This document shows positions 9,156 through 29,226 of a DNA stretch of 64,000 nt, piece by piece. The stretch covers positions 736,001 to 800,000 of the forward strand of contig CAVYTU010000017.1 of assembly GCA_963771465.1 (NCBI GenBank). Direction: 5' to 3'. This DNA is from an uncultured delta proteobacterium (GTDB lineage Bacteria > Desulfobacterota > Binatia > UBA9968). The number at the start of each line of letters is the position of its first letter. The first letter of the stretch is position 1. The notes under the pieces were generated by a model. That model saw only the letters and a list, made by a program, of their open reading frames with translations, had not been told where the DNA came from and did not search any database. The position numbers and the translations under genes are program-made.

Positions 9156-10300
9156 GGACAATTGCGCTGCTCGGTTCGACCGGCTCCATCGGCGTGAGCA
9201 CGCTGCGATTGGTGCGCGAGTTTCCCCATCTATTCAAGATCCACGGCATGGTGGCGGGCAAGAATCTTACTCGGTTAGCCAAACAGGTGAAGGAGTTCAA
9301 ACCCAAATGTGTCGCGATTCAACACGAAGCCGATCTGCCGCGGCTGCGCAAACTCTTGGGCAATACTAAAGTCACAATCCTACACGGTGAGGCCGGTGCA
9401 TCGGCCGTGGCGACCGCCGCTGATGTCGATGTGGTCTTGGCGGCGATTGTCGGCGGCGCCGGTCTGATGCCGACGCTCAATGGTTTGTTGGCGGGTAAAG
9501 AGATCGCCCTCGCCAACAAAGAGGCGCTCGTTATGGCCGGTGAAATATTCATCAAGGCGGCTAAAAAAAAGCGTGTGCGTCTGCTGCCCGTCGATAGCGA
9601 GCACAGTGCGATCTTTCAGTGCCTGCAAGGCAATGAACGGGGCGACGTCGACAAAATTATTCTGACCGCTTCCGGCGGGCCGTTCTTACGAATGCCGCTC
9701 AACCGTTTGGCCCACGTCAGCATCGCCCAGGCGCTGAAGCATCCAAATTGGAAGATGGGACAAAAAATTACCATCGACTCGGCGACGATGATGAACAAGG
9801 GGTTGGAAGTGATCGAAGCTCGCTGGGAGTTCGACATGGTGCCGGACAATATCCAGGTGGTGATCCATCCCCAAAGCGTGGTTCATTCCATGGTGCGCTA
9901 CCAAGACGGCGCGGTCATGGCCCAACTCGGCATTGCCGATATGCGCATCCCAATCGCTTATGCCTTGGCATTTCCGCACCGGCTGAAAGGCAGCTGGAGC
10001 CCGCTGGACCTGACCCAACACGGCGAGTTAAACTTTCTTCCCGTGGAGCACAAACGCTTTCCCGCGCTATCTTTGGCTTATGGGGCGTTGCGTGCAGGCG
10101 GCACGATGGCGACCGCGCTGAACGGCGCCAATGAAGTGGCGGTGGCGGCATTTTTGAGCGGCAGGATAGGATTTCGCGAAATACATCGTATAATTGATAA
10201 AACTTTGCAGCGCCACATCAACGGTCAGGCGCGAGACGTTGGGACGGTCCTGGACGTGGATCGTTGGGCTCGCGCACAGGCAAATTCGTTGATCGGCTGA
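9152..10300 (+). CDS. dxr: 1-deoxy-D-xylulose 5-phosphate reductoisomerase
   Basis: LGSTGSIG, LANKEALV, PVDSEHSAIFQ, HPNWKMG, TIDSATMMNKGLE. Confidence 0.99.
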   Translation: MRTIALLGSTGSIGVSTLRLVREFPHLFKIHGMVAGKNLTRLAKQVKEFKPKCVAIQHEADLPRLRKLLGNTKVTILHGEAGASAVATAADVDVVLAAIVGGAGLMPTLNGLLAGKEIALANKEALVMAGEIFIKAAKKKRVRLLPVDSEHSAIFQCLQGNERGDVDKIILTASGGPFLRMPLNRLAHVSIAQALKHPNWKMGQKITIDSATMMNKGLEVIEARWEFDMVPDNIQVVIHPQSVVHSMVRYQDGAVMAQLGIADMRIPIAYALAFPHRLKGSWSPLDLTQHGELNFLPVEHKRFPALSLAYGALRAGGTMATALNGANEVAVAAFLSGRIGFREIHRIIDKTLQRHINGQARDVGTVLDVDRWARAQANSLIG

Positions 10301-10322
10301 AATCGATTAAGGAGCTTATTGA

Positions 10323-11405
10323 ATGGAAAGTTTCGCTTATTCCGTCGTCGCCGCTATTATCGGCCTCGGTGTGCTGATTGTCTTTCACGAATTCGGCCAT
10401 TTTTTGGTGGCGAAACTATCCGGCGTCGGCGTGATCACATTTTCCGTTGGCTTCGGCCCCAAGCTTTGGGTGAGGAAAAAGGGCGAAACCGAGTATGCCT
10501 TGAGCGCCTTTCCCCTCGGCGGTTACGTCAAGATGGTCGGCGAAGATCCCGATCAAGAAGTACAACCCGGTGACCGGGAAAAGTCGTTCGCCCACAAGAG
10601 CTTGCTCAAGCGCATCGCCATCGTGGTCGCCGGGCCGGGATTTAATCTACTCTTGGCCGTATTGCTGCTGATGGTGGTTTATACGTTTTACGGCGTGCCC
10701 GTGATGTCGACGCAAGTGAGCGGCGTGGAGAAAGGCTCTCCGGCCGAGAAGGCCGGTATCGTAAAAGGGGACCGGATTATTTCCCTGGATGGCAAGACGG
10801 TCGAGCAGTGGGAAGAGCTTTCGGGTGGCATCAAAGCGAGCGCTGGCAAACCTCTCGAACTTCAGATTCGCCGCGGCAGCGAAACGGTCAATGTCACGGT
10901 ACAGCCGACTCAAAAGGAAGGCAAAAATATTTTCGGTGAACGTAAAGATGATTGGATGATTGGCATCGGCAGTCAAGTGAGCCTCGAAAAAGGCAACCCA
11001 GGTCTAGCCATTGTCCGAGCATTTTACCAAACCTACGATTATTCGAAGCTTACATTACTAGCCTTCTACAAGATGATTGTCGGCGACGTGTCGCCGCGCA
11101 ACATCGGCGGACCGATTTTGATCGCGCAAATGGCCGGCCAGCAGGCGCAAGAAGGACTCGGCAGCTTTTTGGCCTTCTTGGCGGTGTTGAGCATCAACTT
11201 GGGTGTGCTCAATCTCTTGCCGGTGCCCGTGCTCGACGGCGGTCACCTGTTGTTTTTTCTAGTCGAGGCGGTGATTCGTAAGCCGGTAGCGGTTAGATAT
11301 CGCGAGATGGCGCAACAGGTCGGCATCTGCCTTCTGGCGCTGCTCATGGTCTACGCTTTCTATAATGACATCGTCCGATTTTTTGAAAAACAGGTTGGTG
11401 GATGA
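10323..11405 (+). CDS. rseP: RIP metalloprotease RseP
   Basis: HEFGH zinc motif, PLGGYVKM, one PDZ domain, NLLPVPVLDGG. Confidence 0.97.
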   Translation: MESFAYSVVAAIIGLGVLIVFHEFGHFLVAKLSGVGVITFSVGFGPKLWVRKKGETEYALSAFPLGGYVKMVGEDPDQEVQPGDREKSFAHKSLLKRIAIVVAGPGFNLLLAVLLLMVVYTFYGVPVMSTQVSGVEKGSPAEKAGIVKGDRIISLDGKTVEQWEELSGGIKASAGKPLELQIRRGSETVNVTVQPTQKEGKNIFGERKDDWMIGIGSQVSLEKGNPGLAIVRAFYQTYDYSKLTLLAFYKMIVGDVSPRNIGGPILIAQMAGQQAQEGLGSFLAFLAVLSINLGVLNLLPVPVLDGGHLLFFLVEAVIRKPVAVRYREMAQQVGICLLALLMVYAFYNDIVRFFEKQVGG

Positions 11406-12151
11406 GAATTCTCGGCATCGATACCGCCACTACGACCGCGAGCGTCGCGTTAATCGATGATCACCAGCCAGTCGCTGAAAAGTTCTATAACAGAAACAGT
11501 GAAGTTTCTGAAAACCTCGCGATTGCACCCAAAGGTAATCACGCCGAGATCATTCTGCCGCTGATTCGAGCCGTTCTCGACCAAGCAAAGCTTTGCTTGT
11601 CTGAGCTTGATGGTATTGCCGTGTCGATCGGTCCCGGATCGTTTACCGGATTGAGGATCGCGTTGGCGACGGTCAAAGGGCTTGCCTACGAACTAGGTAT
11701 CCCGGTGGTCGGCATCTCGACACTGCACGCGCAAGCCTCTCGCGTTTGCGACACCGGCGAGCTTATTTGTGCGATGCTCGACGCGCGCAAACGAGAAGTC
11801 TACGCTGCGCTGTTTCGCCGCGTGAACGGTAATCTCATGCGGTTGTCAGACGACGGCGTCATGTCGATGACAAACGCTATTGAGATGATTCAAAGCGCGC
11901 GTCAAAATGATGGGTGTACCGTCATCGGTGACGGCGCCCAGGCTTATGATAAAGTTTTGTTGCAATCCCTCGGCGCGCGGCTACGCATCGCCGCCGAGAC
12001 TGAATGTTCTACGGTGGCGCGCCGGGTCGCGGAGCTCGCTCAGACGCGCTTGGGCGCTCCAGCGGAGGACGATTTGGCTACTCTTGTGCCGCTTTATTTG
12101 CGTTCGTCGGAAGCTCAAAGCAAAAGCGCATTGTCAGTGCTAACTTGTTGA
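11402..12151 (+). CDS. tsaB: tRNA t6A biosynthesis protein TsaB
   Basis: ILGIDTAT, GPGSFTGLRI, DARKREVY, PLYLRSSEA. Confidence 0.95.
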   Translation: MRILGIDTATTTASVALIDDHQPVAEKFYNRNSEVSENLAIAPKGNHAEIILPLIRAVLDQAKLCLSELDGIAVSIGPGSFTGLRIALATVKGLAYELGIPVVGISTLHAQASRVCDTGELICAMLDARKREVYAALFRRVNGNLMRLSDDGVMSMTNAIEMIQSARQNDGCTVIGDGAQAYDKVLLQSLGARLRIAAETECSTVARRVAELAQTRLGAPAEDDLATLVPLYLRSSEAQSKSALSVLTC

Positions 12152-12172
12152 AATGCTATATGGAAAACTACG

Positions 12173-12201
12173 TTGACAAAGAGTTTAGCGTAAGTTAAAT
12201 T
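12173..12201 (+). promoter_or_regulatory. sigma70-type promoter for DUF465-ilvBN
   Basis: TTGACA (12173-12178), 17 bp, TAAATT (12196-12201). Confidence 0.7.
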
Positions 12202-12244
12202 GAGGCCCGCTCGAAGCCAAAAAAATAAAATTAGGAGGCGCCGT

Positions 12245-12463
12245 ATGGAGCATAGAGAAGAACAAACGATTGTCTCCCTGCTGGACAAGGATCCAGAGTT
12301 GAAGAAATTTTATCATGAGCACCAGGAGCTTGAAAAAAAGCTCGCTGAATTTCAGCATAAACATATTTTGTCTCCTGAAGAAGAATTGGAGATGAAAAAA
12401 ATTCAGAAGCTAAAACTGATCGGCAAGGATCGGATCATGGAGCTTCTAGGAAAATACCGGTAG
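12245..12463 (+). CDS. DUF465/YdcH-family small coiled-coil protein
   Basis: AGGAGG RBS; 72 aa with HQELEKKL and KKIQKLKLIGKDRI, typical of the family. Confidence 0.8.
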   Translation: MEHREEQTIVSLLDKDPELKKFYHEHQELEKKLAEFQHKHILSPEEELEMKKIQKLKLIGKDRIMELLGKYR

Positions 12464-12487
12464 CTGCCGGTTTCGCTAAAGGATTGT

Positions 12488-14266
12488 ATGAAGATGACGG
12501 GCGCGGAGATATTTTGTGAGTCGCTAAAGTGCGAAGGGGTGAAAACCGTTTTCGGCTTGCCCGGCGGAGTGGTGTTAAAGATTTTCGACGTCTTGTGCCA
12601 GCGCAAAGACATCGAGTTTATCCTCACGCGCCATGAACAAGGCGCGGCTCATATGGCCGAAGGCTATGCCAAAGCGACCGGCAAAGCCGGCGTCGTCTTG
12701 GTGACCTCCGGCCCTGGGATGACGAACATCGTTACCGGCTTGGCCGATGCTTACATGGATTCCGTGCCGTTGGTTGCGTTCACCGGTCAAGTTTCGACCG
12801 ATCTGATCGGCAACGATGCTTTTCAAGAGGCCGATAACGTCGGCATTAGTCGTCCTTGTACGAAGCACAATGTGCTGGTGAAAGACGTTAACGATCTCGC
12901 CCAAGCGATCAAGGAAGCGTTTTACATCGCCACCAGCGGCCGGCCGGGACCGGTGTTGGTCGATATTCCGAAGGATGTCAGCATCGCCAAAGCGGAGTTC
13001 AAGTACCCCGACAAAGTCAATCTGCGCGGATACAACCCAGGGGTGGTTGGCAGCAAGCAAAATATCAGGCTAGCCGCCGAAGAAATCATGAAGGCGAAGA
13101 AGCCGATTATTTACGTCGGTGGCGGCGCGGTGTTTTCCGATGCCGCTGAAGAGATTCGCGAGTTGGCGGAAATCACGCAAATCCCCGTGACCATGACGTT
13201 GATGGGACTCGGTAGCTTTCCGGGCGATCATCCGTTGTCGCTCGGCATGCTCGGCATGCACGGCGGCTACTGGACCAATATGGCGATGCATCATGCCGAT
13301 CTGCTAATCGCCGTGGGCGCTCGTTTCGACGACCGCGTTACCGGCAAACTCTCCGAGTTTTGCCCGGAAGCCCGAGTGATTCATATCGATATCGATCCGA
13401 CATCGATCAAGAAAACTTTTCACGCGCATATTCCGATCGTCGGCGATGTCAAACCTGTGCTTCGACAAATGAACGTCATTCTGCGTTCCATGGATGGCAA
13501 TGCGGCGAGCATGAGAGCTTATCGCGCGCCATGGATCAAACAGGTCGAAGAGTGGCGAAAAACTCATCCGTTGACCTACAAGCAGGATGATAAGGTCATC
13601 AAGCCGCAGTACGTCATCGAAAAGCTCTACGACCTAGCCAAGCGCGACGCGATCGTTGCCACCGATGTCGGCCAGCACCAAATGTTCGCGGCGCAATATT
13701 TCAAGGGATATAAGCCGCGCACATGGCTGACTTCAGGCGGACTCGGCACGATGGGTTTTGGATTTCCGGCCGCCATTGGCGCTCAAGTCGCTTTTCCCGA
13801 CCGGCAAGTGCTTTGTATCACTAGTGAGGGCAGCTTCCAGATGAATTTGCAGGAGCTGGTGGTTGCCGCGCTGCACAAGTTGCCGGTGAAAATCGTTCTG
13901 CTCAATAACGGCGTGCACGGCATGGTGCGCCAATGGCAAGATCTTTTCTATGAAGGTCGCTACTCGGCGAGTGTTCTTGGTAAGACGCCGGATTTCGTCA
14001 AATTGGCGGACGCCTACGGCATCGTCGGACTGCGCGCGCTCAAACCCGGCGAAGTCGAGCCGGTGCTCAAAGAAGGCTTGAAACATAAAGGCCCGGTGCT
14101 GATGGATATTCATACCGACCCGTACGAGAACTGCTATCCGATGATTCCCGCCGGCGGGGCGCAGCATGAGATGATGCTTGAAGATCCGCCGGAGCTTAAA
14201 CTGGCACGCAAAGGTGGATCACGTAAGAGAAAGGTGGATGAGGGCGAGGGTGAGCTTCCTGCCTAA
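12488..14266 (+). CDS. ilvB: Acetolactate synthase large subunit
   Basis: FGLPGG, RHEQGAAHMAEGY, TSGPG, DVGQHQM, SGGLGTMGFG, GMVRQWQ. Confidence 0.97.
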   Translation: MKMTGAEIFCESLKCEGVKTVFGLPGGVVLKIFDVLCQRKDIEFILTRHEQGAAHMAEGYAKATGKAGVVLVTSGPGMTNIVTGLADAYMDSVPLVAFTGQVSTDLIGNDAFQEADNVGISRPCTKHNVLVKDVNDLAQAIKEAFYIATSGRPGPVLVDIPKDVSIAKAEFKYPDKVNLRGYNPGVVGSKQNIRLAAEEIMKAKKPIIYVGGGAVFSDAAEEIRELAEITQIPVTMTLMGLGSFPGDHPLSLGMLGMHGGYWTNMAMHHADLLIAVGARFDDRVTGKLSEFCPEARVIHIDIDPTSIKKTFHAHIPIVGDVKPVLRQMNVILRSMDGNAASMRAYRAPWIKQVEEWRKTHPLTYKQDDKVIKPQYVIEKLYDLAKRDAIVATDVGQHQMFAAQYFKGYKPRTWLTSGGLGTMGFGFPAAIGAQVAFPDRQVLCITSEGSFQMNLQELVVAALHKLPVKIVLLNNGVHGMVRQWQDLFYEGRYSASVLGKTPDFVKLADAYGIVGLRALKPGEVEPVLKEGLKHKGPVLMDIHTDPYENCYPMIPAGGAQHEMMLEDPPELKLARKGGSRKRKVDEGEGELPA

Positions 14267-14277
14267 TTTTTTCGCGA

Positions 14278-14799
14278 ATGGAACATATCATATCAGTTCT
14301 CGTTGAGAACAAGTTCGGCGTGCTCGCCAGAGTCGCCGGACTCTTTAGTGCCCGAGGCTATAATATCGAGAGTCTGTCAGTTGCGCCGACGTTAGATCCG
14401 TCGACGTCGATGATTACCATCGTCACCGACGGTGACGACCGCATCATCGAGCAGATCATGAAGCAACTCAACAAAGTCGTCGAAGTGTTAGAAGTCGTCG
14501 ACTTGACCGAGACGCACTTTCTCGACCGCGAGACCGCGTTAATCAAAGTGCACACGAAACCTGCGCACCGCGATGAAGCGATTCGGATCGCGGCGATCTT
14601 TCGCGCCAATATCGTCGATTCCTCGGCAACGACGTACACCATCGAGATCACCGGCGATACTGAAAAAGTCGAGGCGATGATCAATATGCTCAAGCCCCTC
14701 GGTATCAAAGAGTTGATCCGCACCGGGCGCATCGCGATCTCGCGCGAGACCACCCGCACCGCCTTTCCCCGGCGTGAACCCGCGCTGCTGAAAAATTAA
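14278..14799 (+). CDS. ilvN: Acetolactate synthase small subunit
   Basis: ACT domain VLVENKFGVLARVAGLFSARGYNIESLSV. Confidence 0.97.
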   Translation: MEHIISVLVENKFGVLARVAGLFSARGYNIESLSVAPTLDPSTSMITIVTDGDDRIIEQIMKQLNKVVEVLEVVDLTETHFLDRETALIKVHTKPAHRDEAIRIAAIFRANIVDSSATTYTIEITGDTEKVEAMINMLKPLGIKELIRTGRIAISRETTRTAFPRREPALLKN

Positions 14800-14907
14800 G
14801 ATCAGTCCAAGCCTTCTATCGAGGTTTTCGGAGTTACCGAGCTTCTTTCTCGATTGCCAACGGTTGTGACTACTTCATATCCGTCGATTTGGCCGTAGCG
14901 TCCTTAA

Positions 14908-15126
14908 CTACTTCCTTAACTTGCTACCGGCGTCTTTGATGGTGTCGCCAGCTTTTTCCATCGCCTGACCGGTCTGTTCCTTTGCCCGGTCCACTGCTTG
15001 GTCAATTGCGGCGCCAGCTTTCTCGGCCGGGCCTTTGGAATCCTCTTCGGCTTTGCCGCACGCGCCGACGAACATAAGAAACGTCGCCGCGACGGCTCCC
15101 AAGGATAATTTTCTTGTCGCTCTCAT
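14908..15126 (-). CDS. Small lipoprotein, Ala/Lys/Glu-rich
   Basis: Signal peptide with lipobox (VGAC); GPAEKAGAAID...MEKAGDTIKD amphipathic repeats; GGGAGG RBS on the minus strand. Confidence 0.75.
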   Translation of the reverse strand: MRATRKLSLGAVAATFLMFVGACGKAEEDSKGPAEKAGAAIDQAVDRAKEQTGQAMEKAGDTIKDAGSKLRK

Positions 15127-15484
15127 CGCTTCGCTCGTCCTCCCTTAACGTCAACAGATAGTTTTTTTTAGCACCCAGGAAGGCGTAGCTTCAAGAGAAT
15201 TCTGATAAGATTCGCTCCGGCTTGGCACGTCTAACAATGAGTTCACGGCGCGGACGGAATAGCTTAGCTAGTAGGCGAGGGCGAGGGGATAATGCTAAGA
15301 TTTTTTGATTCACAGTGTCACGAGCAACTCGGGAACTGTCGCCGACGTATAAGAATGTCGTTAACCGCTGCTTGCGCGAAAAAGGTTACGATCTGATCGG
15401 GGGAACTGATTCTCCGGCTCTTATTCCTGTCCATCAGCGACCCCATCCAATCTACCAAAGTCGTTGTCTTACGCGCACTTGCCG

Positions 15485-15513
15485 TTGACTTAGCAAGGTC
15501 CAGTCGGCATAGT
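15485..15513 (+). promoter_or_regulatory. Possible sigma70 promoter for the ilvC-psd-pssA-leuA unit
   Basis: TTGACT, 17 bp, CATAGT, ending about 30 bp before the ilvC ATG. Confidence 0.5.
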
Positions 15514-15543
15514 AGAAGGGGTTAAATTCACAGGAGTAAAAAC

Positions 15544-16560
<1,017 letters not shown>

Positions 16561-16588
16561 TCGCCATGGATTGCGGCCGAATTTCCGT

Positions 16589-17218
16589 ATGAGAATCGCT
16601 CGCGAAGGCTATCCGCTTATTGCGACCATTGCGATTGCGGCGCTGATCGCTCTTGGGATCGGCTGGAGCTTGCTGGGCAGTTTGCTGGCGGTTTTGACGC
16701 TCGCCGTGGCGGCATTTTTTCGCGATCCTGAACGCGTGGTTCCCGCCGGCGACAATCTGATTGTTTCACCGGCTGATGGCAAAGTGGTCAGCATCGCACC
16801 GGCGTCTGCGGGCGGCATGTTTGACGGCGCGGCAACTCGAATCAGCATCTTTCTTTCACCCCTCGACGTGCACATCAACCGTGTGCCCGTAGCGGGAAAG
16901 ATTGACGCGGTACAGTATCAACCGGGGCAATTTCTCCCGGCCTACAAAGCCGACGCCTGGGAGCGCAATGAACAAAATGCGCTCAAGATCCTTTGCAGCG
17001 GCGCGCGCTTTATCGGCGTTGTGCAGATTGCCGGGATATTGGCCCGGCGTATTGTTTGCCGGGTCAAACGAGGCGATGATCTTAAGCGCGGTGATAGATT
17101 CGGATTGATTATGTTTGGGTCGCGAACCGACACATATTTGCCTGCCAGCTGTTCGGTAGAAGTTATCGAAGGGCAGAGAGTCAAAGGCGGTGAAACAATA
17201 ATCGGGAGGTTTGTATGA
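16589..17218 (+). CDS. psd: Phosphatidylserine decarboxylase proenzyme
   Basis: FFRDPER, SPADG, IFLSPLDVHINR, NEQN, self-cleavage FGSRTD. Confidence 0.95.
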   Translation: MRIAREGYPLIATIAIAALIALGIGWSLLGSLLAVLTLAVAAFFRDPERVVPAGDNLIVSPADGKVVSIAPASAGGMFDGAATRISIFLSPLDVHINRVPVAGKIDAVQYQPGQFLPAYKADAWERNEQNALKILCSGARFIGVVQIAGILARRIVCRVKRGDDLKRGDRFGLIMFGSRTDTYLPASCSVEVIEGQRVKGGETIIGRFV

Positions 17219-18072
17219 GCGCGATGAATGCGCCGGACCCCGAACAGTTTTCCGGCTCGACAAAAGTTCGCTTGCTGCGCCGGCGCGGCAAGCCGCGAGT
17301 GCCGTTGCGCCAGCGTATGCGCTCGGATCAGCTGCGCAAGGGCGTTTACCTGATCCCGAGTTTATTTACCGCCGGCAACTTGATGTGCGGTTTCTTTTCG
17401 ATTATCGCAACGTTTCACGGCGAATACGTTAACGCGGCATTGCTGATTTTATTGGCGAATGTGTTCGACGGCGTCGATGGCTATGTTGCCCGCTTGACCC
17501 GAACTACCAGCCAATTTGGCGTCGAATTCGACTCACTCGCCGATGTTGTCGCCTTCGGTGTCGCGCCGGGGGTTTTAGTTTACTTCTGGGCGCTGTTGCC
17601 GTGGCAGACGTGGGGCTGGTTGGCGGCCTCGACCTATGTGGTTTGCGGCGCGCTTAGATTATCGCGCTTCAACGTGCAAGCGCAGGGTTTGACGAGGAAT
17701 CATTTTGTCGGCTTGCCGATCCCGGCGGCGGCTCAAATGATTACGTCCTCTATTATTTTGTATAACTACCTCGATGGCGCCACTGCACCGAACCGCCACC
17801 TGGTATTCTTGCTAGTCGTTTACGGCTTGGCAGCGCTGATGGTGAGCAGCATTCCGTACTTTACCCTTAAGAACAACGATATCAGAAAGCGTCATCCCCA
17901 TTGGATGTTGGTTTCCGGCTTGATTTTGATTACACTGATCATCGCCGAGAGACATATTATGTTTTTTACGATTGTCTTACTGTACACGTTATCCGGGCCC
18001 TTATTATGGTGCTTAACGGCGCTTAAGCACAGACGGGAGCTGAGCCGGGAGGCGGTTAAAGAATCGCCGTAA
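17215..18072 (+). CDS. pssA: CDP-diacylglycerol-serine O-phosphatidyltransferase
   Basis: CDP-alcohol motif DGVDGYVAR...FGVEFDSLADVVAFG, LRLSRFN, FVGLPIP. Confidence 0.96.
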   Translation: MSAMNAPDPEQFSGSTKVRLLRRRGKPRVPLRQRMRSDQLRKGVYLIPSLFTAGNLMCGFFSIIATFHGEYVNAALLILLANVFDGVDGYVARLTRTTSQFGVEFDSLADVVAFGVAPGVLVYFWALLPWQTWGWLAASTYVVCGALRLSRFNVQAQGLTRNHFVGLPIPAAAQMITSSIILYNYLDGATAPNRHLVFLLVVYGLAALMVSSIPYFTLKNNDIRKRHPHWMLVSGLILITLIIAERHIMFFTIVLLYTLSGPLLWCLTALKHRRELSREAVKESP

Positions 18073-18095
18073 CATCCTGCTCAGGTAAAAACAAA

Positions 18096-18133
18096 AAAAC
18101 TCCCGTTGGCCCTGCCGCGGGAGTTTTCATTTC
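18096..18133 (+). terminator. Intrinsic terminator between pssA and leuA (probable attenuator)
   Basis: AAAACTCCCG (18096-18105) pairs with CGGGAGTTTT (18118-18127), with extra TGGC/GCCG pairing inside and a TTTTCATTTC tail. It ends about 40 nt upstream of the leuA ATG. Confidence 0.75.
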
Positions 18134-18172
18134 TGGGTTGGGCCAGCGGACAACGTGAGAGGAGACGCTAAA

Positions 18173-19740
<1,568 letters not shown>

Positions 19741-19744
<4 letters not shown>

Positions 19745-20832
19745 ACTACAAGATCGCGGTTTTACCGGGCGACGGCATCGGCCCTGAGGTAATGGGCGAG
19801 GGCACTCAGGTTCTAAATCAAATAGCGAAACTTTACGGTTTCACCGTTGAGTTGGAGCCCGGCGTGGTTGGCGGCGCGTCCATCGACGCCCACGGCAAAC
19901 CGCTCACCGATGCGGTTTTGAACTTAGCCAAGCAGAGCGATGCCGTTTTACTCGGCGCCATGGGCGGGCCTAAGTGGGACGGGCTCGATTATTCGATTCG
20001 CCCCGAGCGCGCGCTGTTAGCGTTACGTCAAGAATTGGGTTTGTTCGCCAATCTCCGTCCGGTAAAATTATTTTCCGCGCTGGCTTCGGCCTCGACGTTG
20101 AAGCGAGAAGTGGTCGAGGGCACGGACATGCTCGTGGTGCGGGAATTGACCGGCGGAATCTACTTCGGCCAACCCAAGGGCGTGACGACATTGCCGGACG
20201 GCACCGAGCGCGGCGTGAATACGGAAGTTTACACGACGCCGGAGATCGAACGGATCGCTCACGTCGCGTTTCAAGCGGCGCAAAAGCGGCGCAAGAAAGT
20301 CACGTCGGTCGATAAAGCCAATGTGCTCGAGGTCACCGAACTGTGGCGCAGGGTGGTGACTCGCCTTCACAAACACGAGGCCTACGCCGGCATCGAGCTT
20401 GAACATATTCTCGTCGACAATTGCGCCATGCAGCTGATTCGCAACCCGCGCCAATTCGACGTGCTGGTGACCACGAATATGTTCGGCGATATTTTGAGCG
20501 ACGAAGCCGCCATGCTGACGGGTTCCATCGGCATGCTGCCGTCGGCGAGTTTGGGCGGCAAAGTTGGCATGTACGAGCCGGTCCATGGCAGCGCGCCGGA
20601 CATCACCGGGCAGGACAAGGCGAATCCACTGGCGACGATTCTCAGCGTCGCCATGATGCTGCGTCATTCCTTAGACCAGGCGGTAGGGGCGGATCGCATC
20701 GAAAAAGCCGTCGAAGATGTGTTGAACGAGGGCTATCGTACGGCGGATATTCAAGAGCCGGGCTGCAAGCCGGTCGGCTGCAGGCAGATGGGACAACTAG
20801 TGCGGGACAAAGTCGCCCAGGCGAGGGGATAA
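19741..20832 (+). CDS. leuB: 3-isopropylmalate dehydrogenase
   Basis: [53 protein letters not shown] overlap with leuA. Confidence 0.98.
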
Positions 20833-20837
20833 TCAGT

Positions 20838-21860
20838 GTGAAAAAAGAAACCTACAACGTCGCCGTTGTCGGCGCTACCGGCGCCGTCGGCGAGCAGATG
20901 CGAGAAGTGTTGGAAGAGCGCCAGTTTCCCGTCGGCGAATTACGCCTGCTCGCGTCGGAGCGTTCCGCCGGGCAGTATCTGCCGTTTCAAGGTCGCCAGT
21001 TGCGTGTCGAAGCTCTCAAAGAAGATTCGTTCAAAAACATCGACATCGGTTTATTCTCAGCCGGCGGCAGCGTCAGCGCCAAGTTCGCGCCTTTAGCCGT
21101 GGGTGCCGGCGCGGTCGTGGTCGACAACACGGCTTTTTTTCGCATGGAGCCAGACGTGCCGTTGGTCGTTCCCGAAGTGAACGCCAAAGAGATTGGCAAA
21201 TACAAGGCGCGCGGCATCATCGCCAATCCGAATTGCTCGACGATCCAATTGGTCGTCGCGCTCAAGCCGATTCACGACGCGGCGCGGCTCAAACGCGTGG
21301 TCGTGTCCACCTATCAATCCGTTTCCGGCGCCGGGCGTCAGGCGATGGATGAGTTGAGCCAGCAAGTCACCGCGCTCTTCAGCGGCCACGAGATCCGCAA
21401 GCAAAAGTTTCCGCACCAGATCGCGTTTAACTGTATTCCACACATCGATGTGTTTATGGACGGCGGCTACACAAAAGAAGAGTGGAAGTTGATCAACGAG
21501 ACCCGCAAGATTTTCGCCGAGCCGAATCTGCCGGTGACCGCCACCACCGTGCGCGTGCCGGTGTTTTGCAGCCACTCGGAATCCGTCAACGTCGAGACCG
21601 AAAGAAAGTTAAGCGCCCAAGGGGCGAAAGATATTTTGCGTGATGCGCCCGGGGTGCTTCTGGTGGACGAGCCGGAAAATGATCTTTACCCGATGGCGAT
21701 CGACGCCACCGGCAAAGACGCGACCTACGTCGGTAGAATCCGCGAAGACGATTCCATCGCCAACGGGTTAAACCTCTGGGTGGTCGCCGACAACCTGCGC
21801 AAAGGCGCAGCGCTCAACGCCGTTCAGATTGCTGAGATTCTGATCCGCGATTATCTCTAG
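20838..21860 (+). CDS. asd: Aspartate-semialdehyde dehydrogenase
   Basis: VVGATGAVG, IANPNCSTIQ, TYQSVSGAG, VRVPVFCSHSE, DNLRKGAALNA. GTG start. Confidence 0.98.
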   Translation: MKKETYNVAVVGATGAVGEQMREVLEERQFPVGELRLLASERSAGQYLPFQGRQLRVEALKEDSFKNIDIGLFSAGGSVSAKFAPLAVGAGAVVVDNTAFFRMEPDVPLVVPEVNAKEIGKYKARGIIANPNCSTIQLVVALKPIHDAARLKRVVVSTYQSVSGAGRQAMDELSQQVTALFSGHEIRKQKFPHQIAFNCIPHIDVFMDGGYTKEEWKLINETRKIFAEPNLPVTATTVRVPVFCSHSESVNVETERKLSAQGAKDILRDAPGVLLVDEPENDLYPMAIDATGKDATYVGRIREDDSIANGLNLWVVADNLRKGAALNAVQIAEILIRDYL

Positions 21861-21910
21861 GTTTCGGATTGCCGATCAGAATGAGCCGGGTGCGCTCTTG
21901 TTCTAGATCT

Positions 21911-21931
21911 CGAAACTCGAAACCCGAAACA
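21911..21931. repeat. Three tandem heptamers CGAAACN
   Basis: CGAAACT CGAAACC CGAAACA, with a complementary GTTTCGG at 21861-21867. Confidence 0.6.
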
Positions 21932-21937
21932 GCTCTC

Positions 21938-22669
21938 GTGAAGATCAAACTCACCATTGAGTACGACGGGACGAATTACCACGGCTGGCAGATTCAGCAG
22001 AACTGCGAATCGATACAGGCGGTCCTTGAACGCGCACTGGCAATTTTCTTACGCACCTTCACCCGCGTCGCGGCGGCGGGTCGTACCGATGCCGGCGTTC
22101 ACGCCTTAGGGCAAGTCGCTACTTTCGACACAGAGCATGAATATAAACCGCACCGAATCCGGCGCGCCCTCAACGCTCTCACGCCGCCAGATATCACGAT
22201 CAAGGAAGTGGAGTCCGTGCCAGACTCGTTCGATCCCCGGCGCGACGCGCGCGGTCGAGTGTACGAGTATCATATCCTCAATCGGCCGACACCATCGCCG
22301 TTCTATCGCAACCGCGCTTGGCATTTGCATGAGCGGTTGAATGTGGCGGCGATGCGCGCCGCGATTTCCTGCTTACCCGGCGAACATGACTTTACTTCGT
22401 TTCGCGCCGGCGACTGCGACGCGGCGCATCCGATTCGCAGGGTCTTTCAAACCTCCCTCGAGCAGCGCGGCGAGTTGCTGGTGTTTAGCATCGAAGCCAC
22501 AGCGTTTTTGCGTCACATGGTGCGCAATATCGTCGGCACGCTGGTCGAAGTGGGAACTGGCCGGCGCTCGATGGAAGAGTTTCAGCAGTTGCTGGAACTG
22601 AATGAGCGCAGTAAAGCCGGCGATACCGCGCCGCCGAATGGATTGTATTTGGTAAAGGTTGACTACTAG
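21938..22669 (+). CDS. truA: tRNA pseudouridine(38-40) synthase
   Basis: EYDGTNYHGWQ, GRTDAGVHA, GEHDFTSF, FLRHMVR, APPNGLYL. Confidence 0.97.
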   Translation: MKIKLTIEYDGTNYHGWQIQQNCESIQAVLERALAIFLRTFTRVAAAGRTDAGVHALGQVATFDTEHEYKPHRIRRALNALTPPDITIKEVESVPDSFDPRRDARGRVYEYHILNRPTPSPFYRNRAWHLHERLNVAAMRAAISCLPGEHDFTSFRAGDCDAAHPIRRVFQTSLEQRGELLVFSIEATAFLRHMVRNIVGTLVEVGTGRRSMEEFQQLLELNERSKAGDTAPPNGLYLVKVDY

Positions 22670-22790
22670 CCTCACTAACTCGGTTCAGGCGCGAATGGAC
22701 CAGGGGACTTTTACGTCGGCTGGAACCGTTTATTCAGCAGCAAGCGGTAATGGGCAACCGTCTCAGAGTCGATCGTCAAGCGATGACGAA

Positions 22791-23782
22791 TCATCCAAAC
22801 GGGGTCGCGTCGCGTAGCCAAGCCCTCTGGCCAGCCGACAAAGGTCCGGAGCGAAAGAAAAGCGGATTCGCCGAGATCGCTTTCTCCGCGAACAGCCAGT
22901 GATAATGCAAGTGAATCAGATGGGGGAAAACAGTCTTGACCAATACCGGATCAACCCGGTCGTGCGAGTGCAACGGATAATTGTAGGTTGGCGGTAGCTG
23001 TCGAACTCGTCGAGTGGTGCTCCAGATTGCTAAAGACAGCGCTGCCTGGTTTGAGCCCCAGAGCTTACCCGCCTCACCTTCGACCCAGCCTACACCGGAC
23101 CGAATCGGGATCGTTTTAGCGTACGGTCGAAGGCCTTGACGGATGGACGTAAAGAAAAAGTCTGCCCATTTGCGCAGGATTCCGAGATCGCCCTGGCCAC
23201 TACCAGCCGCCGTTGTAGCTCGCCTTGATTCGATGGCGGTCAATAGAAGTTTCGCTCCAAGGGATTTCGTCATAATCGACGCCACAGCAGCGGCATAGAG
23301 CTTGCCGATAGATGTCGAAGCCGTCCGGCGGGCCATCGGTACACATCCCTTTTATATCGACGGGTCGCAGCGCCACATCAATATCCGGTGCCAGGAGAAA
23401 TTCGCACGGCTCGCGCAAGAAAAGCGTGTCGCTATCCAGGATCACCAGAATTTCGTGTCGGCGCGGCGCCTCGATGTGCGCGGCTGCCGCTACCCGATTG
23501 GCCGATCCGTACTCACGACATTCCGAATTAAGAATCGTGTCGCTGTAGTGCACCCGCAGATCGTCGAGTCTTCTGCGAGTGTCGATGGAAATCGCGTGTT
23601 CGGCGCGCGGCGAGAGCGCATAAATGGCGCAGTCTTAAAGCGACCCGTATAGCGATGCATGCAACAAAGCCGACATCGGGTTTTTCAGTTACGGAAAACG
23701 CTGCTGGAGTGTCCATTTCTACCGATGGACGAGTCGCATGCCGCACGTTGATGCGAGATAAAATGCGCAGAAGTGATTTCAT
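22791..23782 (-). pseudogene. Frameshifted glycosyltransferase-like (GT-A, DxD) gene
   Basis: Three overlapping minus-strand frames (23528-23782, 23200-23553, 22791-23336) read as one protein: GFVACI / AIYALSPR...YGSANR...LVILDSDTLFL...YNGG / W...NQAALS...LP..YNYPL...HLHYH. Confidence 0.6.
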
Positions 23783-24022
23783 TATTCGGTTGGTAGTCGG
23801 ACAGCTGATAGAGAAGCCACGCCGAGCCGTTGGAGATCGGCTATCTCAAATTGCTCTACACGACTTGCAAGATTTCTTGTTGATCCGTATCGCCACTTAT
23901 GATTCGAAAGTCAAGCCACGTTTACGGTTTCAATATCGTCTCATTCTCCCATAGGTGCGAGGCGAATGATTGGTGTAGCGAATGACACGTCGGGACTCTG
24001 CGATCCCTGCGTTGATTGTTAT

Positions 24023-24051
24023 TTGACAGCAAGAGCCGATTTACTTATACC
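24023..24051 (+). promoter_or_regulatory. sigma70-type promoter
   Basis: TTGACA, 17 bp, TATACC. Confidence 0.6.
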
Positions 24052-24096
24052 CAAGCGAAGAGTTCGATTTTGCGCGAAAATCCTGGGAGGGTTTCA

Positions 24097-25011
24097 ATGA
24101 TGATGCCGCAACACGATAACTTTTACGATGTTTACTCGAAGGCGAAGAAGATCAAGATCCAATGGCCCAACGACGCGCGCATGGCGATCGCATTGGCCGG
24201 CAATCTGGAAGCTTGGACCGAGATTCCTAACGCCAAGCACCGGCGCACGCATCATGTCGGCGGATCGAATCCGATCAAGGAAGACGACGTGGTGTCTCAG
24301 TACGATTGCCGAACTGCGAGCGAGAATGATTACGGCGGCCGAACTGGCGTGTGGCGGATTCTTCGCATCCTCGACAAGTACGATGTGAAGGCGTCATTCA
24401 ATACCAACGCGCTCTGTATTTATCGCTATCCAGAGGCCGTGAAGGCGGTACATGAACGCGGTCATGAGATCGTGGGCCATTCGTATGCAGAAGACATTCA
24501 GCTCACACAGCTGACTGCCGAGCAGGAGCGCGATGAGATTCGCACCTGCGCCAAGATGTTCGAAGATTTCACCGGAGTGCGTCCAACCGGCTGGCTGACC
24601 TCCGGCATGCGCCACACGGAACGGACGTTGGCGATTCTCGCCGATGAAGGTTTTGCTTGGCATGGCGACGCGGTCAACGACGACAATCCCTATCCTGCGA
24701 CCATCAACGGCAAGACGATGATAATTGTGCCGTATAAAAATGCCGTCAGCGGCTTGAACGACACCGGTATGTATCGGCGCGGCATCACGGCGCGCGATGT
24801 GTTCAATTCATTCAAAGACGAGTTCGATCTGCTTTATGAAGAATCGGCGACCGAGCCCAAGATGCTGACGCTGGCGATGCATTGTCAGATGGCTTTTCCA
24901 GCGACAGGAAAAGTTTACGACGACTGTATTAAATATGCGAAAACGTTTCCCGATCTTTGGTTCGCGAAAAGAGGTGAGATCGTTGAGTGGGTAAAGAAGA
25001 CCTGCTTGTAA
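24097..25011 (+). CDS. Polysaccharide deacetylase family (CE4, PuuE-like) protein
   Basis: WPNDARMAIAL, DYGGRTGVWRILRILD, GHEIVGHSY, RPTGW, FKDEFDLLYEE. GGGAGG RBS. Confidence 0.85.
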   Translation: MMMPQHDNFYDVYSKAKKIKIQWPNDARMAIALAGNLEAWTEIPNAKHRRTHHVGGSNPIKEDDVVSQYDCRTASENDYGGRTGVWRILRILDKYDVKASFNTNALCIYRYPEAVKAVHERGHEIVGHSYAEDIQLTQLTAEQERDEIRTCAKMFEDFTGVRPTGWLTSGMRHTERTLAILADEGFAWHGDAVNDDNPYPATINGKTMIIVPYKNAVSGLNDTGMYRRGITARDVFNSFKDEFDLLYEESATEPKMLTLAMHCQMAFPATGKVYDDCIKYAKTFPDLWFAKRGEIVEWVKKTCL

Positions 25012-25077
25012 TACCATCACTCCGTCGATTTGTGTTATTTCCTCTCCCTGAGGGAAAGGATGTAAGCAGGAGAGGAT

Positions 25078-26460
25078 ATGTGCGACACAGCCGATGACGG
25101 CGTCGGGATTAGCGATTCGCTGCCGCATGAATTGCAGCTCCGCAACCAAGGACTGCGCACTGCAGATATCTCAGCGCTGATGCCCGTTGCCCGCAAGCTG
25201 GCGAGTTCGCGTGAGAACCGCGATAGCCATATCGGCTTTGTCGGTTACGACAAGACTAAAGCGGGCAACAAGATTCTCATCGCCATCGACCGCGAGTACG
25301 ATCTCGACGTTCCCCACGCGGTAGCCGCCGCGCTGCGCGAGAAAGGTGCCCACGTCGATCTGCTGGTTGCCGACATGGGCAGTCCCGACCGCCTCTTCGA
25401 CTACACCGACGAAGTCGACGTGATTATGCGGCGGGAACCGTGGGAAAATAATCCACGCCGCTGGGAGGGCATGCCTTACATCGAGGACTTCGCGCTGCGC
25501 GGCGGCTATGATTTGCTCATTCACGGCAAAGGCGGGCCGATTCCGCAAACCGAATTTCGCTACGAACAGATTCCCTGGCTCCGCGCCGAGCATTTCTTGC
25601 AGCGCTCGACGACCTATCCGCTCGATTTGCATTTGCTGATCAACAAAAAAACCTGGGACCCAATCTGGGAGTACTGCCGCGGCGGGCGCGCACGGCTGAC
25701 GGATGCCGAAGGGACGGATATCTCTTGGACCTACTGGGATGAGTATTACGACGGCACGCGCTACGGCTTTTCCTCGACGCCGCGCAACGGCCATCTGTTC
25801 GGCCATCCGGTGCCGCCAATCATCGCTAAAGAAGATGCCAGCGGCGTGGTCGCTGGCACGACGAGCCATTTCTCCAAAGCATTTCCACAGGTCCAGGTCG
25901 ACTTGGAAGGCGGGCAAGTTGTCAAAGTTCTTGGCGGCGCTGCGTACGGCGATGCATGGCGAACTTTGCTCAATGAAAGTAGAAATACCAAGTATCCCTG
26001 TTTCCCACGGCCCGGATTATTTTATCTGTGGGAAGTGGCGATCGGAACCAATCCGAAGATCATGCGACCTAGCCGCATCGAGAAACACTCTTCCGGCGGC
26101 TTCGAGTGGGAGCGGCGCCGTTCCGGCGTGATTCACATGGGCTTCGGTACCTTGTGGCGTTCGGCAGAGGAGAAATGGGCAGGAGAGAACGGCATTCTCT
26201 ACGGCCATCTGCATATTCATTTGCTGTTCCCGACCTTCAACGTCACGACCAAGAGCGGCAAGGAATATACGATCATTCGTAGCGGCAGACTAACCGCCCT
26301 CGACGATCCCGAAGTACGCAAGCTCGCCGAGAAATACGGCGACCCCGACGATCTCTTGCGCGAAGATTGGATCCCGCAAATACCGGGGATCACTTCGACA
26401 GGCTCGTATGAAGATTACGCGCGCAATCCGGGGCAGTGGATTTACGGACAGAACGCGTAA
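25078..26460 (+). CDS. Hypothetical metalloenzyme, aminopeptidase-T(M29)/NicX-like fold suspected
   Basis: 460-aa ORF with GAGG RBS; WEVAIGTNPK, GVIHMGFG, GHLHIH near the C-terminus. Confidence 0.55.
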   Translation: MCDTADDGVGISDSLPHELQLRNQGLRTADISALMPVARKLASSRENRDSHIGFVGYDKTKAGNKILIAIDREYDLDVPHAVAAALREKGAHVDLLVADMGSPDRLFDYTDEVDVIMRREPWENNPRRWEGMPYIEDFALRGGYDLLIHGKGGPIPQTEFRYEQIPWLRAEHFLQRSTTYPLDLHLLINKKTWDPIWEYCRGGRARLTDAEGTDISWTYWDEYYDGTRYGFSSTPRNGHLFGHPVPPIIAKEDASGVVAGTTSHFSKAFPQVQVDLEGGQVVKVLGGAAYGDAWRTLLNESRNTKYPCFPRPGLFYLWEVAIGTNPKIMRPSRIEKHSSGGFEWERRRSGVIHMGFGTLWRSAEEKWAGENGILYGHLHIHLLFPTFNVTTKSGKEYTIIRSGRLTALDDPEVRKLAEKYGDPDDLLREDWIPQIPGITSTGSYEDYARNPGQWIYGQNA

Positions 26461-27064: not shown

Positions 27065-27152
27065 CCAACTATACAGATACGCGGAGGAGAATCGCGCTGC
27101 ATTTCGCGCTCCTCCTGCTTCGATCGCCCATCATTCGGCAAATTTCTGGCTC

Positions 27153-27181
27153 TTGAAGTCCTAGATACCGACCGATATTAT
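27153..27181 (+). promoter_or_regulatory. sigma70-type promoter for leuCD
   Basis: TTGAAG, 17 bp, TATTAT, immediately before the AAGGAG RBS. Confidence 0.6.
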
Positions 27182-27203
27182 CGCGCCCAAGGAGAATTTT
27201 TCG

Positions 27204-28601
27204 ATGGCCGGACGGACTCTTTACGATAAGATTTGGCAATCCCATAGCGTGGGTGTTTTGCCGACAGGGCAAACCCAGCTATTTATCGGGCTTCATCTGA
27301 TTCACGAGATCACCACGGCGCCGGCGTTCGATATGCTGCGTGAGAAGGGTATGGACGTGGCATTTCCTGATCGGACGTTTGCGACTGTGGATCATATCGT
27401 ACCGACGGACATGCGCCAGCGGCCCTTTCTCGATCAGGAAGCGGAAGAACTGATTCAGGCGTTAGAAAGAAACGTCAAACAATTCGGCGTTGAATTCTTC
27501 GGTCTCGACAGCATGAATCAAGGCATCGTCCATGTGATCGGCCCGCAGCTGGGTCTCACGCAGCCCGGCATGACACTCGCCTGTGGCGACAGCCACACGA
27601 GCACGCACGGCGCATTCGGTGCCTTGGCTTTTGGCATCGGCACCAGCCAGGTGCGTGATGTGTTGGCGACGCAGACTCTGGCGATGGACAAGTTGAAAGT
27701 GCGCCGCATCAACGTCAACGGCACGCTCGGAGTCGGAGTTTACGCCAAGGATGTGATTCTCCATATCATTCGCAATTTAGGCGTCGGCGGCGGCAAAGGT
27801 TTCGCGTACGAATACGGCGGCGCGGTGATCGACCGGATGAACATGGAAGAGCGCATGACCGTGTGCAACATGAGCATCGAAGGCGGCGCGCTGGTGGGAT
27901 ACGTCAATCCGGATCAGACGACTTTTGATTATATCAATGGCCGTCCCCAAGCGCCCAAGGGCGAAGCCTTCGATCGGGCGGTGAAGTACTGGCAGTCGGT
28001 TGCCAGCGATAGCGATGCCGTGTTTGACGATGTCATCAACTACGACGGCAAGGATATCGAACCGACGGTGACTTGGGGCATCAATCCCGGCCAATCGGTT
28101 GGTGTGTCAGAAAACTTGCCCAAGCCGGAAACGTCGGCCGATCCTGACAGCGCCAAGAAGGCTTACGAACATATGGGCTGGACGCCCGGCGCGCCGATCA
28201 TCGGCACGCCGGTCAACGTTGCTTTCATCGGCTCGTGTACCAACGGCCGGCTAGCCGATTTCCGCGTGGCGGCAAGAATTGCCAAAGGCAGAAAAGTATA
28301 TCCCAACGTCCGCGCCTTGGTGGTCCCCGGTTCGGCGGAAGTTAAAAAGCTCGCCGAACAGGAAGGATTGGACAAGATCTTCGAAGCAGCGGGATTTGAG
28401 TGGCGCGAAGCGGGCTGTTCGATGTGCTTGGCGATGAATCCAGATAAACTCAACGGTCGGGAAATCTCCGCGTCGTCTTCCAACCGCAATTTCATCGGCC
28501 GGCAGGGGAGCCCGCAGGGACGGACATTGCTCATGAGCCCGGCGATGGTCGTGGCGGCGGCGCTCAATGGCAAAGTCGTCGACGTGCGCCAGTACGAGTA
28601 A
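27204..28601 (+). CDS. leuC: 3-isopropylmalate dehydratase large subunit
   Basis: [49 protein letters not shown]. Confidence 0.98.
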
Positions 28602-28611
28602 GCGAGGCAAC

Positions 28612-29226
28612 ATGAGCGAGATTATCAAAATCGTCAAAATCAGCGGCACCGCCGTGCCCATGCGCGGCAACGAGATCGATACCGACCGGATCATTCCGGC
28701 GCGCTACTTAAAAGAAGTGACTTTCGCGCGCATGGGCGACTATCCATTCTTCGACGAGCGCTATAGCAGCGACGGTAAGAAGAAAGATCATCCGTTCAAC
28801 GATCCCGAATATAGCGGCGCGTCGGTGCTATTCGTCAACAAGAATTTCGGCTGCGGCTCGTCGCGGGAACACGCGCCCCAGGCGCTCAACCGCTTCGGCA
28901 TCAAGGTGATCGTCGGCGAATCCTTCGCGGCGATCTTTGCCGGCAACTGCACGATGATGGGATTGCCGACCGTCACCGTCAGCGAAAAAGACATGCAACA
29001 ACTGATGAAGAGCGTCGAAGAAAATCCCCAGACCGAGTATAGCGTCGATCTCGACAGCAAGACGCTTACCTACGGCAGCGATAGAATCTCTATCGACCTG
29101 CCGGAAACGTACCGCACTGCGCTTACCGCCGGGTCGTGGGACTCGACCGCGCTCTTGCGCGCGAACCTCGACCAGGTTAAGAAGACCGCGGCCCAACTGC
29201 CTTACATCGACAATTTCGCCGGCTAG
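28612..29226 (+). CDS. leuD: 3-isopropylmalate dehydratase small subunit
   Basis: IDTDRIIPARYL, NFGCGSSREHAPQAL, SFAAIFAGNC. Confidence 0.98.
   Translation: MSEIIKIVKISGTAVPMRGNEIDTDRIIPARYLKEVTFARMGDYPFFDERYSSDGKKKDHPFNDPEYSGASVLFVNKNFGCGSSREHAPQALNRFGIKVIVGESFAAIFAGNCTMMGLPTVTVSEKDMQQLMKSVEENPQTEYSVDLDSKTLTYGSDRISIDLPETYRTALTAGSWDSTALLRANLDQVKKTAAQLPYIDNFAG

Follow-up and report, generated by a model that had tools for sequence, protein, structure and literature searches.

The 3′ tail of pssA as a putative leucine attenuation leader for leuA in an uncultured delta proteobacterium

Introduction

Can the end of a full-length enzyme gene serve as the sensor peptide of a transcription attenuator? 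This question is raised by the junction between pssA and leuA in a stretch of DNA of 64,000 nucleotides (nt) from an uncultured delta proteobacterium (assembly GCA_963771465.1, contig CAVYTU010000017.1, positions 736,001 to 800,000), which we refer to as the window and whose coordinates we use throughout. Here, pssA (17215–18072, stop codon 18070–18072), a gene with 41 Leu codons that encodes a 285-residue enzyme, is followed by leuA (ATG at 18173, end at 19744; NF002086 match, E 9.3e-232), which encodes the first committed step to leucine, and then by leuB, asd, and truA in that order. These genes and all elements of the junction described below lie on the forward (+) strand. An earlier sequence-only reading of the window had proposed that the pssA tail acts as the leucine attenuation leader of leuA, and the comparison with related junctions that we report here appears to support it. 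We consider it probable, if far from certain, that the junction holds a ribosome-mediated, Leu-responsive transcription attenuator for leuA-leuB-asd, the gene set behind a terminator, with the 3′ tail of pssA as its leader frame. As attenuators are sought as short intergenic leader open reading frames (ORFs), sensor codons and a pairing arm that sit inside an enzyme gene would be missed.

An intrinsic terminator in front of leuA

We collected junctions in two ways. When 41 related genomes were searched by protein, pssA turned up in 40, and in all 30 loci returned leuA lies directly 3′ of pssA. A pattern scan of genome contigs gave at least 30 loci with pssA-leuA context, 19 of them not already in the protein set; among the 118 pattern-scan matches listed, 88 were unrelated terminator-like hairpins from other taxa. 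The junction set comprised 49 distinct pssA-leuA junctions from three families of the order (f1, to which the window belongs, f2, and f3), with spacers of 73 to 106 nt between the two genes (73 to 82 nt in f2 and f3), and a set of 53 junctions extended the order by two short-spacer families, f77 and f73. For the codon analysis, we used 20 orthologs of the genus with protein identities of 70 to 93%. The genus counts include one locus (L007) from an unpublished genome (G005), without which each invariant count drops by one and the conclusions are unaffected; all junction sequences are relatives, and their counts are not independent events.

Directly 5′ of leuA, where an attenuator has it, lies an intrinsic terminator (18096–18133) made up of a stem (18096–18127) and a U-tract, at the place that the sequence-only reading had given for it. 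The stem pairs CTCCCG (18100–18105) with CGGGAG (18118–18123), is lengthened by A-U pairs and an inner GGC/GCC, and is followed by UUUUCAUUUCU; its 5′ arm is common to the antiterminator described below. It folds with a free energy of −20.0 kcal/mol (z score, −3.07). A consensus scan did not list this terminator because its loop is longer than the 8-nt limit of the tool. The pattern was matched in 49 of 49 junctions, by construction in the 19 that were found by the pattern itself and not so in the 30 found by protein. Within the whole 6.9-Mb genome (G+C 55.7%), the motif occurs once, and no second copy was found. Across the genus, the stem is invariant, and the loop is conserved as well, which is unusual among plain terminators.

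A leuA promoter located after the terminator would have spoken against attenuation. In f2 and f3, the U-tract is immediately adjacent to the ribosome-binding site of leuA and leaves no room for one; therefore, there is no leuA promoter after the terminator there. With leuA transcribed only through the terminator, the latter must be leaky or conditional. In the window, the leuA ribosome-binding site GAGAGGAGA and the ATG, as read from the sequence, occupy 18157–18175. A weak promoter-like site at 18147–18174 (9/12 in the consensus scan) overlaps the leuA ATG and was not accepted as a promoter.

A search of positions 10000–26000 against Rfam matched no family at E values up to 1, including T-box and Leu_leader (RF00512). 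We hence rejected the curated leaders, RF00512 among them, for want of a covariance-model match, as well as a T-box riboswitch, for which the 100-nt spacer is also too short and the antiterminator lacks a UGGN bulge.

Rare leucine codons at the end of pssA

Putative control codons, cognate to the product of the pathway, are found just 5′ of the antiterminator arm, and control lineages are without them. Five in-frame TTA codons, at 17977, 17989, 18001, 18004, and 18013, form a rare-codon cluster (17977–18015) that we propose to be regulatory. TTA makes up 5 of the last 8 Leu codons of pssA versus 4 of the first 33, a hand count of the sequence-only reading that proved exact. Genome-wide, TTA (6.4%) and CTA (5.8%) are the two rarest Leu codons, as counted over 1365 long ORFs. 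The genome has five tRNA-Leu genes, all of them single copy.

The sequence-only reading had also predicted that such codons would be conserved before the stop and that synonymous variation would be suppressed, and both predictions were borne out. Rare Leu codons are kept 19 to 31 codons upstream of the stop. In the genus, L259 and L264 are TTA in 20 of 20 orthologs each, L267 in 17 of 19, and L255 in 16 of 20; the other four TTA codons of the window's pssA are retained in just 1 or 2 of the 20. Over the whole gene, the only codons of at least threefold degeneracy that are invariant in the genus are L238 (TTG), T240 (ACA), L259, and L264. Mean synonymous diversity among the 20 orthologs is 0.46 in the gene and 0.24 to 0.34 in its last 30 codons. 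Over the 49 junctions, codon 264 reads TTA in 44, TTG in 4, and CTA in 1, and codon 259 reads TTA in 35, CTA in 12, and CTG in 2. The exchange between TTA and CTA at codon 259 occurs between families, such that the base differs but the codon stays rare.

We quantified this bias at 29 full-length loci as the share of rare codons among the Leu codons of a 15-codon tail window, of the rest of pssA, and of the sequenced part of leuA. For genus g1, the share amounted to 78 of 111 (0.70) in the tail, 51 of 634 (0.08) in the rest of the gene, and 9 of 557 in leuA. The corresponding values were 12 of 29 (0.41), 26 of 195 (0.13), and 14 of 154 for f2, and 15 of 30 (0.50), 8 of 131 (0.06), and 5 of 131 for f3.

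None of the 49 junctions contains an out-of-frame ORF with three consecutive Leu codons, in line with the sequence-only reading, which had seen no separate Leu-rich leader ORF. A search for leader ORFs in the other frames yielded chance ORFs only, which were not conserved and had no LLL run. The junction has no short dedicated leader ORF, and the translated leader is the pssA tail.

An antiterminator arm and hairpins within the coding tail

The 5′ arm of the antiterminator, GACGGGAG (18032–18039), lies within pssA codons 273 to 275 and contains CGGGAG. It pairs with CUCCCGUU (18100–18107), i.e., with the 5′ arm of the terminator, and is stacked on a hairpin at 18040–18084, so that antiterminator and terminator are mutually exclusive; the antiterminator is strong in f1 and f77. 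This structure, which the sequence-only reading had put forward, is the minimum free energy (MFE) fold of 18028–18110 (−32.0 kcal/mol; z score, −4.47), and 0 of 200 shuffles were as good. In a 21-sequence alignment of the genus, 98.8% of the cells of the antiterminator helix are paired, and the helix is mostly invariant; codon 274 is CGG and codon 275 is GAG in 19 of 20 orthologs each. The pairing is kept despite a change of the residues from R-R-E to R-Q-R-G (CAACGGG with CCCGUUG). Over the 53 junctions, the best duplex with the terminator arm begins 35 to 38 nt after codon 260 in 45, including f77 and f73, and the duplex in the tail has a mean free energy of −16.2, compared with −12.2 at the most favorable site within the preceding 300 nt, with the tail better in 40 of the 53.

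Two hairpins accompany the antiterminator. Hairpin H1 (GUGCUUAA/UUAAGCAC; 18009–18030, with arms at 18009–18016 and 18023–18030) lies inside the coding tail just before the antiterminator arm, and could be a pause or synchronizing hairpin. The sequence-only reading had pointed to it, and it is present in the MFE fold of 17990–18140 and conserved, with 86% of cells paired and three pairs changed on both sides in the 21 genus sequences; the compensatory changes are synonymous (TGC/AAG to TGT/AAA in 4 of the 21). Hairpin H2 (18040–18084) spans the pssA stop and joins the antiterminator arms, and its helices (helices 3 to 5 of the alignment) likewise show compensatory changes, as the sequence-only reading had predicted for the helices. 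Taken as a whole, the structure is paired in 83.7% of cells versus 35 to 52% when the partners were slid, and it has 27 cells changed on both sides versus 12.8 in shuffles.

We furthermore resampled the tail codons synonymously, 300 times for each of 15 representatives. The native folds of f1 beat these resamples with z scores of −4.2, −3.0, −3.6, −3.1, −2.6, and −2.0, and more weakly in two cases (−1.8 and −0.2); 0 to 8 of 300 resamples were as good as the native sequence, except in those two. Natives of f2 and f3 were no more stable than their synonymous resamples (z scores, −1.5 to +0.6).

A further element, GGGCCAGCGGACAACG (18140–18155), is restricted to the genus. Its part GGGCCAGCGG (18140–18149) pairs with the 5′ arm and loop of the terminator (18103–18112) in 94.7% of cells, with 7 cells changed on both sides, compared to 19 to 49% when the partner was slid. 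This helix replaces the terminator in the MFE fold of the read-through RNA (−34.8 kcal/mol). The element lies past the U-tract, too late to influence whether transcription terminates; it might instead act in the stability or processing of the mRNA or in the translation of leuA. RNAalifold in addition drew a long-range helix between the region of codon 259, GUUAUCCG (17986–17995), and 18146–18155, just before the leuA ribosome-binding site, which is near-invariant and has no pair changed on both sides.

Dedicated leaders in sister families

The decisive comparison, in our view, comes from relatives outside the order. Elsewhere in the phylum, leuA follows pssA in 25 of 35 readable junctions, with a spacer below 45 nt in 15 of these 25 and the motif in none. 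Within the class, by contrast, the spacer measures 176 to 339 nt at 28 junctions, drawn from 12 other families, and in 27 of these 28 it contains a short ORF with a Leu run (e.g., ...GLLLSxPP...). These leader ORFs comprise 24 to 44 codons, with LLL runs of common codons; MHTPPTADAVPTRRLLGLLLRIPPEGSGGGG, MYGNSRRPEALAGGLLLTSPPAARARV, and MDAITDTFAPLLGSLLLSCPFGVSVEA are examples. A terminator-like hairpin precedes leuA at 25 of the 28 loci, and a perfect TTGACA, often overlapping the pssA stop, is located within −39 to +50 of that stop in 25 of 28. Leu-run ORF, terminator, and TTGACA at the pssA end together indicate that classical leuA attenuation, with its promoter at the pssA end, is the rule in the class.

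Where the spacer holds a dedicated leader, the pssA tail is poor in leucine. At the 22 sister loci with an anchored pssA window, this window has 44 Leu codons (~2 per locus), with a single CTA and no TTA among them, whereas the same window in the focal order has 4 to 8 Leu codons, mostly rare ones. In the focal order, the SGP motif and the stop also keep a tighter distance (23 to 26 codons versus 16 to 60 in the sisters). The Leu-enriched, rare-codon tail thus appears to be found exactly where the dedicated leader is missing.

The sister leaders (loci L031, L032, L036, and L192–L230) form a family of dedicated Leu-run peptides between pssA and leuA. Their ATG lies ~8 to 10 nt after a −10–like hexamer, which suggests leaderless leader mRNAs. 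Outside the order, f77 (L196–L198) and f73 (L222) have short spacers of 64 to 95 nt without a leader ORF. Their terminator is homologous but longer (CTCCCGCTGG...CGCGGGAGTTTT and CTCCCGCTGG...CCACGCGGGAGTTTT), and a complementary CCAGCGGG lies within the pssA tail. Short spacer, homologous terminator, and missing leader ORF suggest that the embedded form is wider than the order.

A promoter-like element and an internal ATG inside pssA

Within pssA, a promoter-like TTGnnn-17-TAnAnT is found at 17908–17936, with a putative −35 hexamer TTGGTT (17908–17913) and a putative −10 hexamer TACACT (17931–17936). TAnnnT is present in 47 of the 49 junctions and both hexamers in 35, always 17 nt apart. Among the 750 columns of a codon alignment of the 29 full-length orthologs, this is the sole one with TAnnnT in at least 90% of the sequences (29 of 29) and TTG 23 nt upstream in at least 60% (22 of 29). 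The residue at codon 240 varies between T, K, I, and M, yet the third base of the codon is A in 45 of 49. The host appears to use such promoters, compare TTGAAG-17-TATTAT in front of leuC.

Downstream of the hexamers, an in-frame ATG at pssA codon 249 (17959–17961) could serve as the start codon of a 37-codon leader identical to the PssA tail. Codon 249 reads ATG in 40, GTG in 8, and GTC in 1 of the 49 junctions. Its residue is part of a conserved PssA motif, and its conservation alone is hence no proof of initiation. We infer a promoter at 17908–17936 and initiation at this ATG, by which the PssA tail may also be translated alone.

Proposed mechanism and alternative explanations

The anatomy of the junction, its conservation, the codon bias, and the homologous sister leaders are observed. 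The kinetics and the Leu dependence we infer, as follows. Every RNA polymerase on its way to leuA would have to cross the terminator at 18096–18133. A ribosome that runs on to the stop at 18070 would unwind H2 (18040–18084), which holds the antiterminator arms together, and the terminator would then form. A ribosome that lags on the rare Leu codons at 17977–18015, which would be read by the single-copy tRNA-Leu(UAA) or tRNA-Leu(UAG), would instead allow 18032–18039 to capture the emerging 18100–18107, resulting in read-through. With its A site on codons 259 to 267, a ribosome would cover the RNA up to ~18003–18028 and leave 18032 onward free. At the stop, it would cover ~18055–18085, where it would melt the scaffold hairpin but not the antiterminator arms. 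The claim of the sequence-only reading that a ribosome at the stop melts the structure thus holds for the hairpin across the stop, while the arms themselves stay uncovered.

Several points weigh against this attenuator. In constrained folding, the terminator was favored in every modeled state, the free-energy difference (antiterminator minus terminator) being +3.1 without a ribosome, +5.2 to +7.2 with a ribosome on codons 264/267, and +9.4 at the stop. As the terminator is ahead at equilibrium in all states, the switch can only be kinetic, and the energies lend its direction modest support. Kinetic switching is also what classical attenuators use. Folding with masked footprints, a check proposed along with the sequence-only reading, did not discriminate: simple masking leaves the 8–base pair antiterminator helix possible, and with a mask at the stop in ViennaRNA, a model that ignores sterics and kinetics, the paired probability of the terminator arm stayed at ~1.0 in the genus. 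Support for the antiterminator is good in the window's family (f1) and in f77, whereas its signal in f2 and f3 is weak or fails to reach significance. The conservation of TTA may partly serve the helices, with L267 lying in H1 and L259 in the RNAalifold long-range helix, and with 41 Leu codons in pssA, starvation would stall ribosomes further upstream too. From the literature, selective-charging theory expects UUA and UUG to be insensitive and to make poor control codons in Escherichia coli (PMC1183508), and the leaders predicted for Streptomyces coelicolor leuA and ilvB failed to act as classical attenuators when mutated (PMC1262725). Last, in a soil RNA library, one contig of 238 nt agrees with 17969–18206 at every position and joins the end of pssA to the terminator and the start of leuA. 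It is available as a contig only and is compatible with read-through but not proof of it, and DNA carry-over is possible.

Some of these points would be natural for a device that is independent of leucine, such as a constitutive partial terminator that fixes the ratio of ilv-psd-pssA to leuA-leuB-asd, or a coupling sensor of any ribosome lag as in rph-pyrE. A terminator that is thermodynamically favored in all modeled states, footprint masks that do not discriminate, and a weak antiterminator in f2 and f3 all agree with it, and rph-pyrE is a case of sensing without cognate codons (PMC2784333). We nevertheless think such a device unlikely, as it leaves unexplained why extra Leu residues and the two least-used Leu codons should be fixed precisely 5′ of the antiterminator arm, why rare codons are restricted to lineages without a Leu-run leader, and why the regulated gene is the first committed leucine step. 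Alternatively, a trans-acting factor (an RNA-binding protein, a small RNA, or a tRNA) could bind the terminator loop and the downstream element, with the rare codons unrelated and serving, for example, to slow translation while the last PssA helix is inserted into the membrane. The strictly conserved loop, so unusual for a plain terminator, the covariation of the loop with its downstream partner at 18140–18149, and the predicted long-range helix would fit such binding. We judge it quite improbable: no Rfam family, including T-box, was matched at E up to 1, a motif that occurs once in the genome implies no regulon, the downstream element is restricted to one genus, and sister lineages with similar PssA tails do without rare Leu codons.

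It could also be argued that protein constraint and shared ancestry account for the structures and the codon bias, which would then have no regulatory function at all. The sequences are indeed related, so that counts overstate independence, and the nearly invariant helix arms limit the evidence from covariation. But protein constraint would hardly keep codons 259 and 264 invariant in the genus against a mean synonymous diversity of 0.46, nor let codon 259 alternate between TTA and CTA across families while remaining rare; native folds beat synonymous resamples, and the pairing survives amino-acid changes. We give this explanation very little credence. For the Leu-responsive attenuator, a bolder version can be formulated, which we offer as a tentative possibility: one 230-nt stretch would carry four overlapping codes (the last PssA transmembrane helix, the leuA promoter, a 37-codon leader from the internal ATG, and the terminator/antiterminator switch), having arisen by loss of the Leu-run mini-gene that sister families still keep and by recruitment of rare Leu codons in the enzyme tail. 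If true, the move of a sensor out of a dedicated leader and into a functional protein-coding gene could be traced through evolution.

Relation to known systems

The enterobacterial leu attenuator (leuL) shares with the pssA-leuA junction a terminator directly before the first Leu-pathway gene, an antiterminator that uses the 5′ arm of that terminator, and rare Leu codons placed so that a stalled ribosome frees the antiterminator, the arm being ~19 to 28 nt away from the last of the control codons. It differs in its dedicated mini-gene. In pssA, whose product has 285 residues, the codons are spread over the part that encodes the last transmembrane helix and form no Leu run, TTA is used more than CTA, and Rfam Leu_leader has no match. 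The embedded leader would thus be a variation on classical attenuation that works like a leu leader but without the defining mini-gene. The Leu-run leaders of the sister families resemble it in gene pair, position, terminator before leuA, and a promoter overlapping the pssA end, and differ in their separate ORF of 24 to 44 codons and a spacer of 176 to 339 nt, against 73 to 106 nt and no ORF in the focal order.

Precedents exist for leaders and attenuators in full-length genes. E. coli pyrE senses uridine triphosphate (UTP) via polymerase speed and is not known to use an antiterminator helix or cognate control codons; pssA-leuA, with its RNA antiterminator and its Leu codons, departs from this nucleotide-pausing design. 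What the two have in common is a full-length upstream gene as the translated leader into a downstream biosynthetic gene, and an upstream stop close before an intercistronic terminator (in the window, stop at 18070 and stem from 18096, with 23 to 26 codons from the SGP motif to the stop). In rph-pyrE, read-through is set by how far the stop of the upstream gene lies from the hairpin and by translation of that gene's 3′ end (PMC2784333). The sequence-only reading, which did not recognize a full-length gene doubling as the sensor peptide as a described design, is to be qualified by this precedent. At the level of listings and abstracts, we found no published description of the pssA-leuA arrangement or of amino-acid control codons in the tail of an enzyme gene.

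The frdD-ampC junction is similar in that the downstream gene has its promoter within the 3′-terminal part of the upstream gene, whose terminator serves as the attenuator. Attenuation of ampC is tied to growth rate and is not known to involve an amino acid or regulatory codons, whereas pssA-leuA has amino acid–cognate codons. In E. coli, the promoter and the attenuator of ampC have been placed within frdD or adjacent to it (PMC12625342).

Regulatory selection can act on synonymous sites at gene ends, with consequences for annotation, codon-usage models, and gene refactoring. Rare codons may substitute for a codon run where the protein sequence is constrained, and dedicated and embedded versions in one class offer a natural series for how regulatory RNA is rebuilt.

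Surrounding genes

Upstream of the junction, on the same strand, lie ilvB (12488–14266), ilvN (14278–14799), ilvC (15544–16560), and psd (16571–17218). The gap between ilvN and ilvC (14800–15543, 744 nt) is unusually long for an ilvBNC cluster and holds short ORFs only, on both strands. Between a strong promoter-like TTGACA-17-TAAATT (12173–12201) and ilvB, there is a 72-codon Glu/Lys-rich ORF (12246–12464), which we rejected as an ilv leader as it is without a run of branched-chain (Leu/Ile/Val) codons.

The genes leuC-leuD (27204–29226) lie 7.5 kb downstream, behind a receiver-domain-like ORF. Neither a leader ORF nor a terminator of the leuA type was found in their upstream region (27065–27203), and leuCD seem not to share the leuA attenuator. 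The promoter-like TTGAAG-17-TATTAT before leuC is located at 27153–27181, and a GGAGGAG/CTCCTCC hairpin (~27083–27116) lies ahead of leuC.

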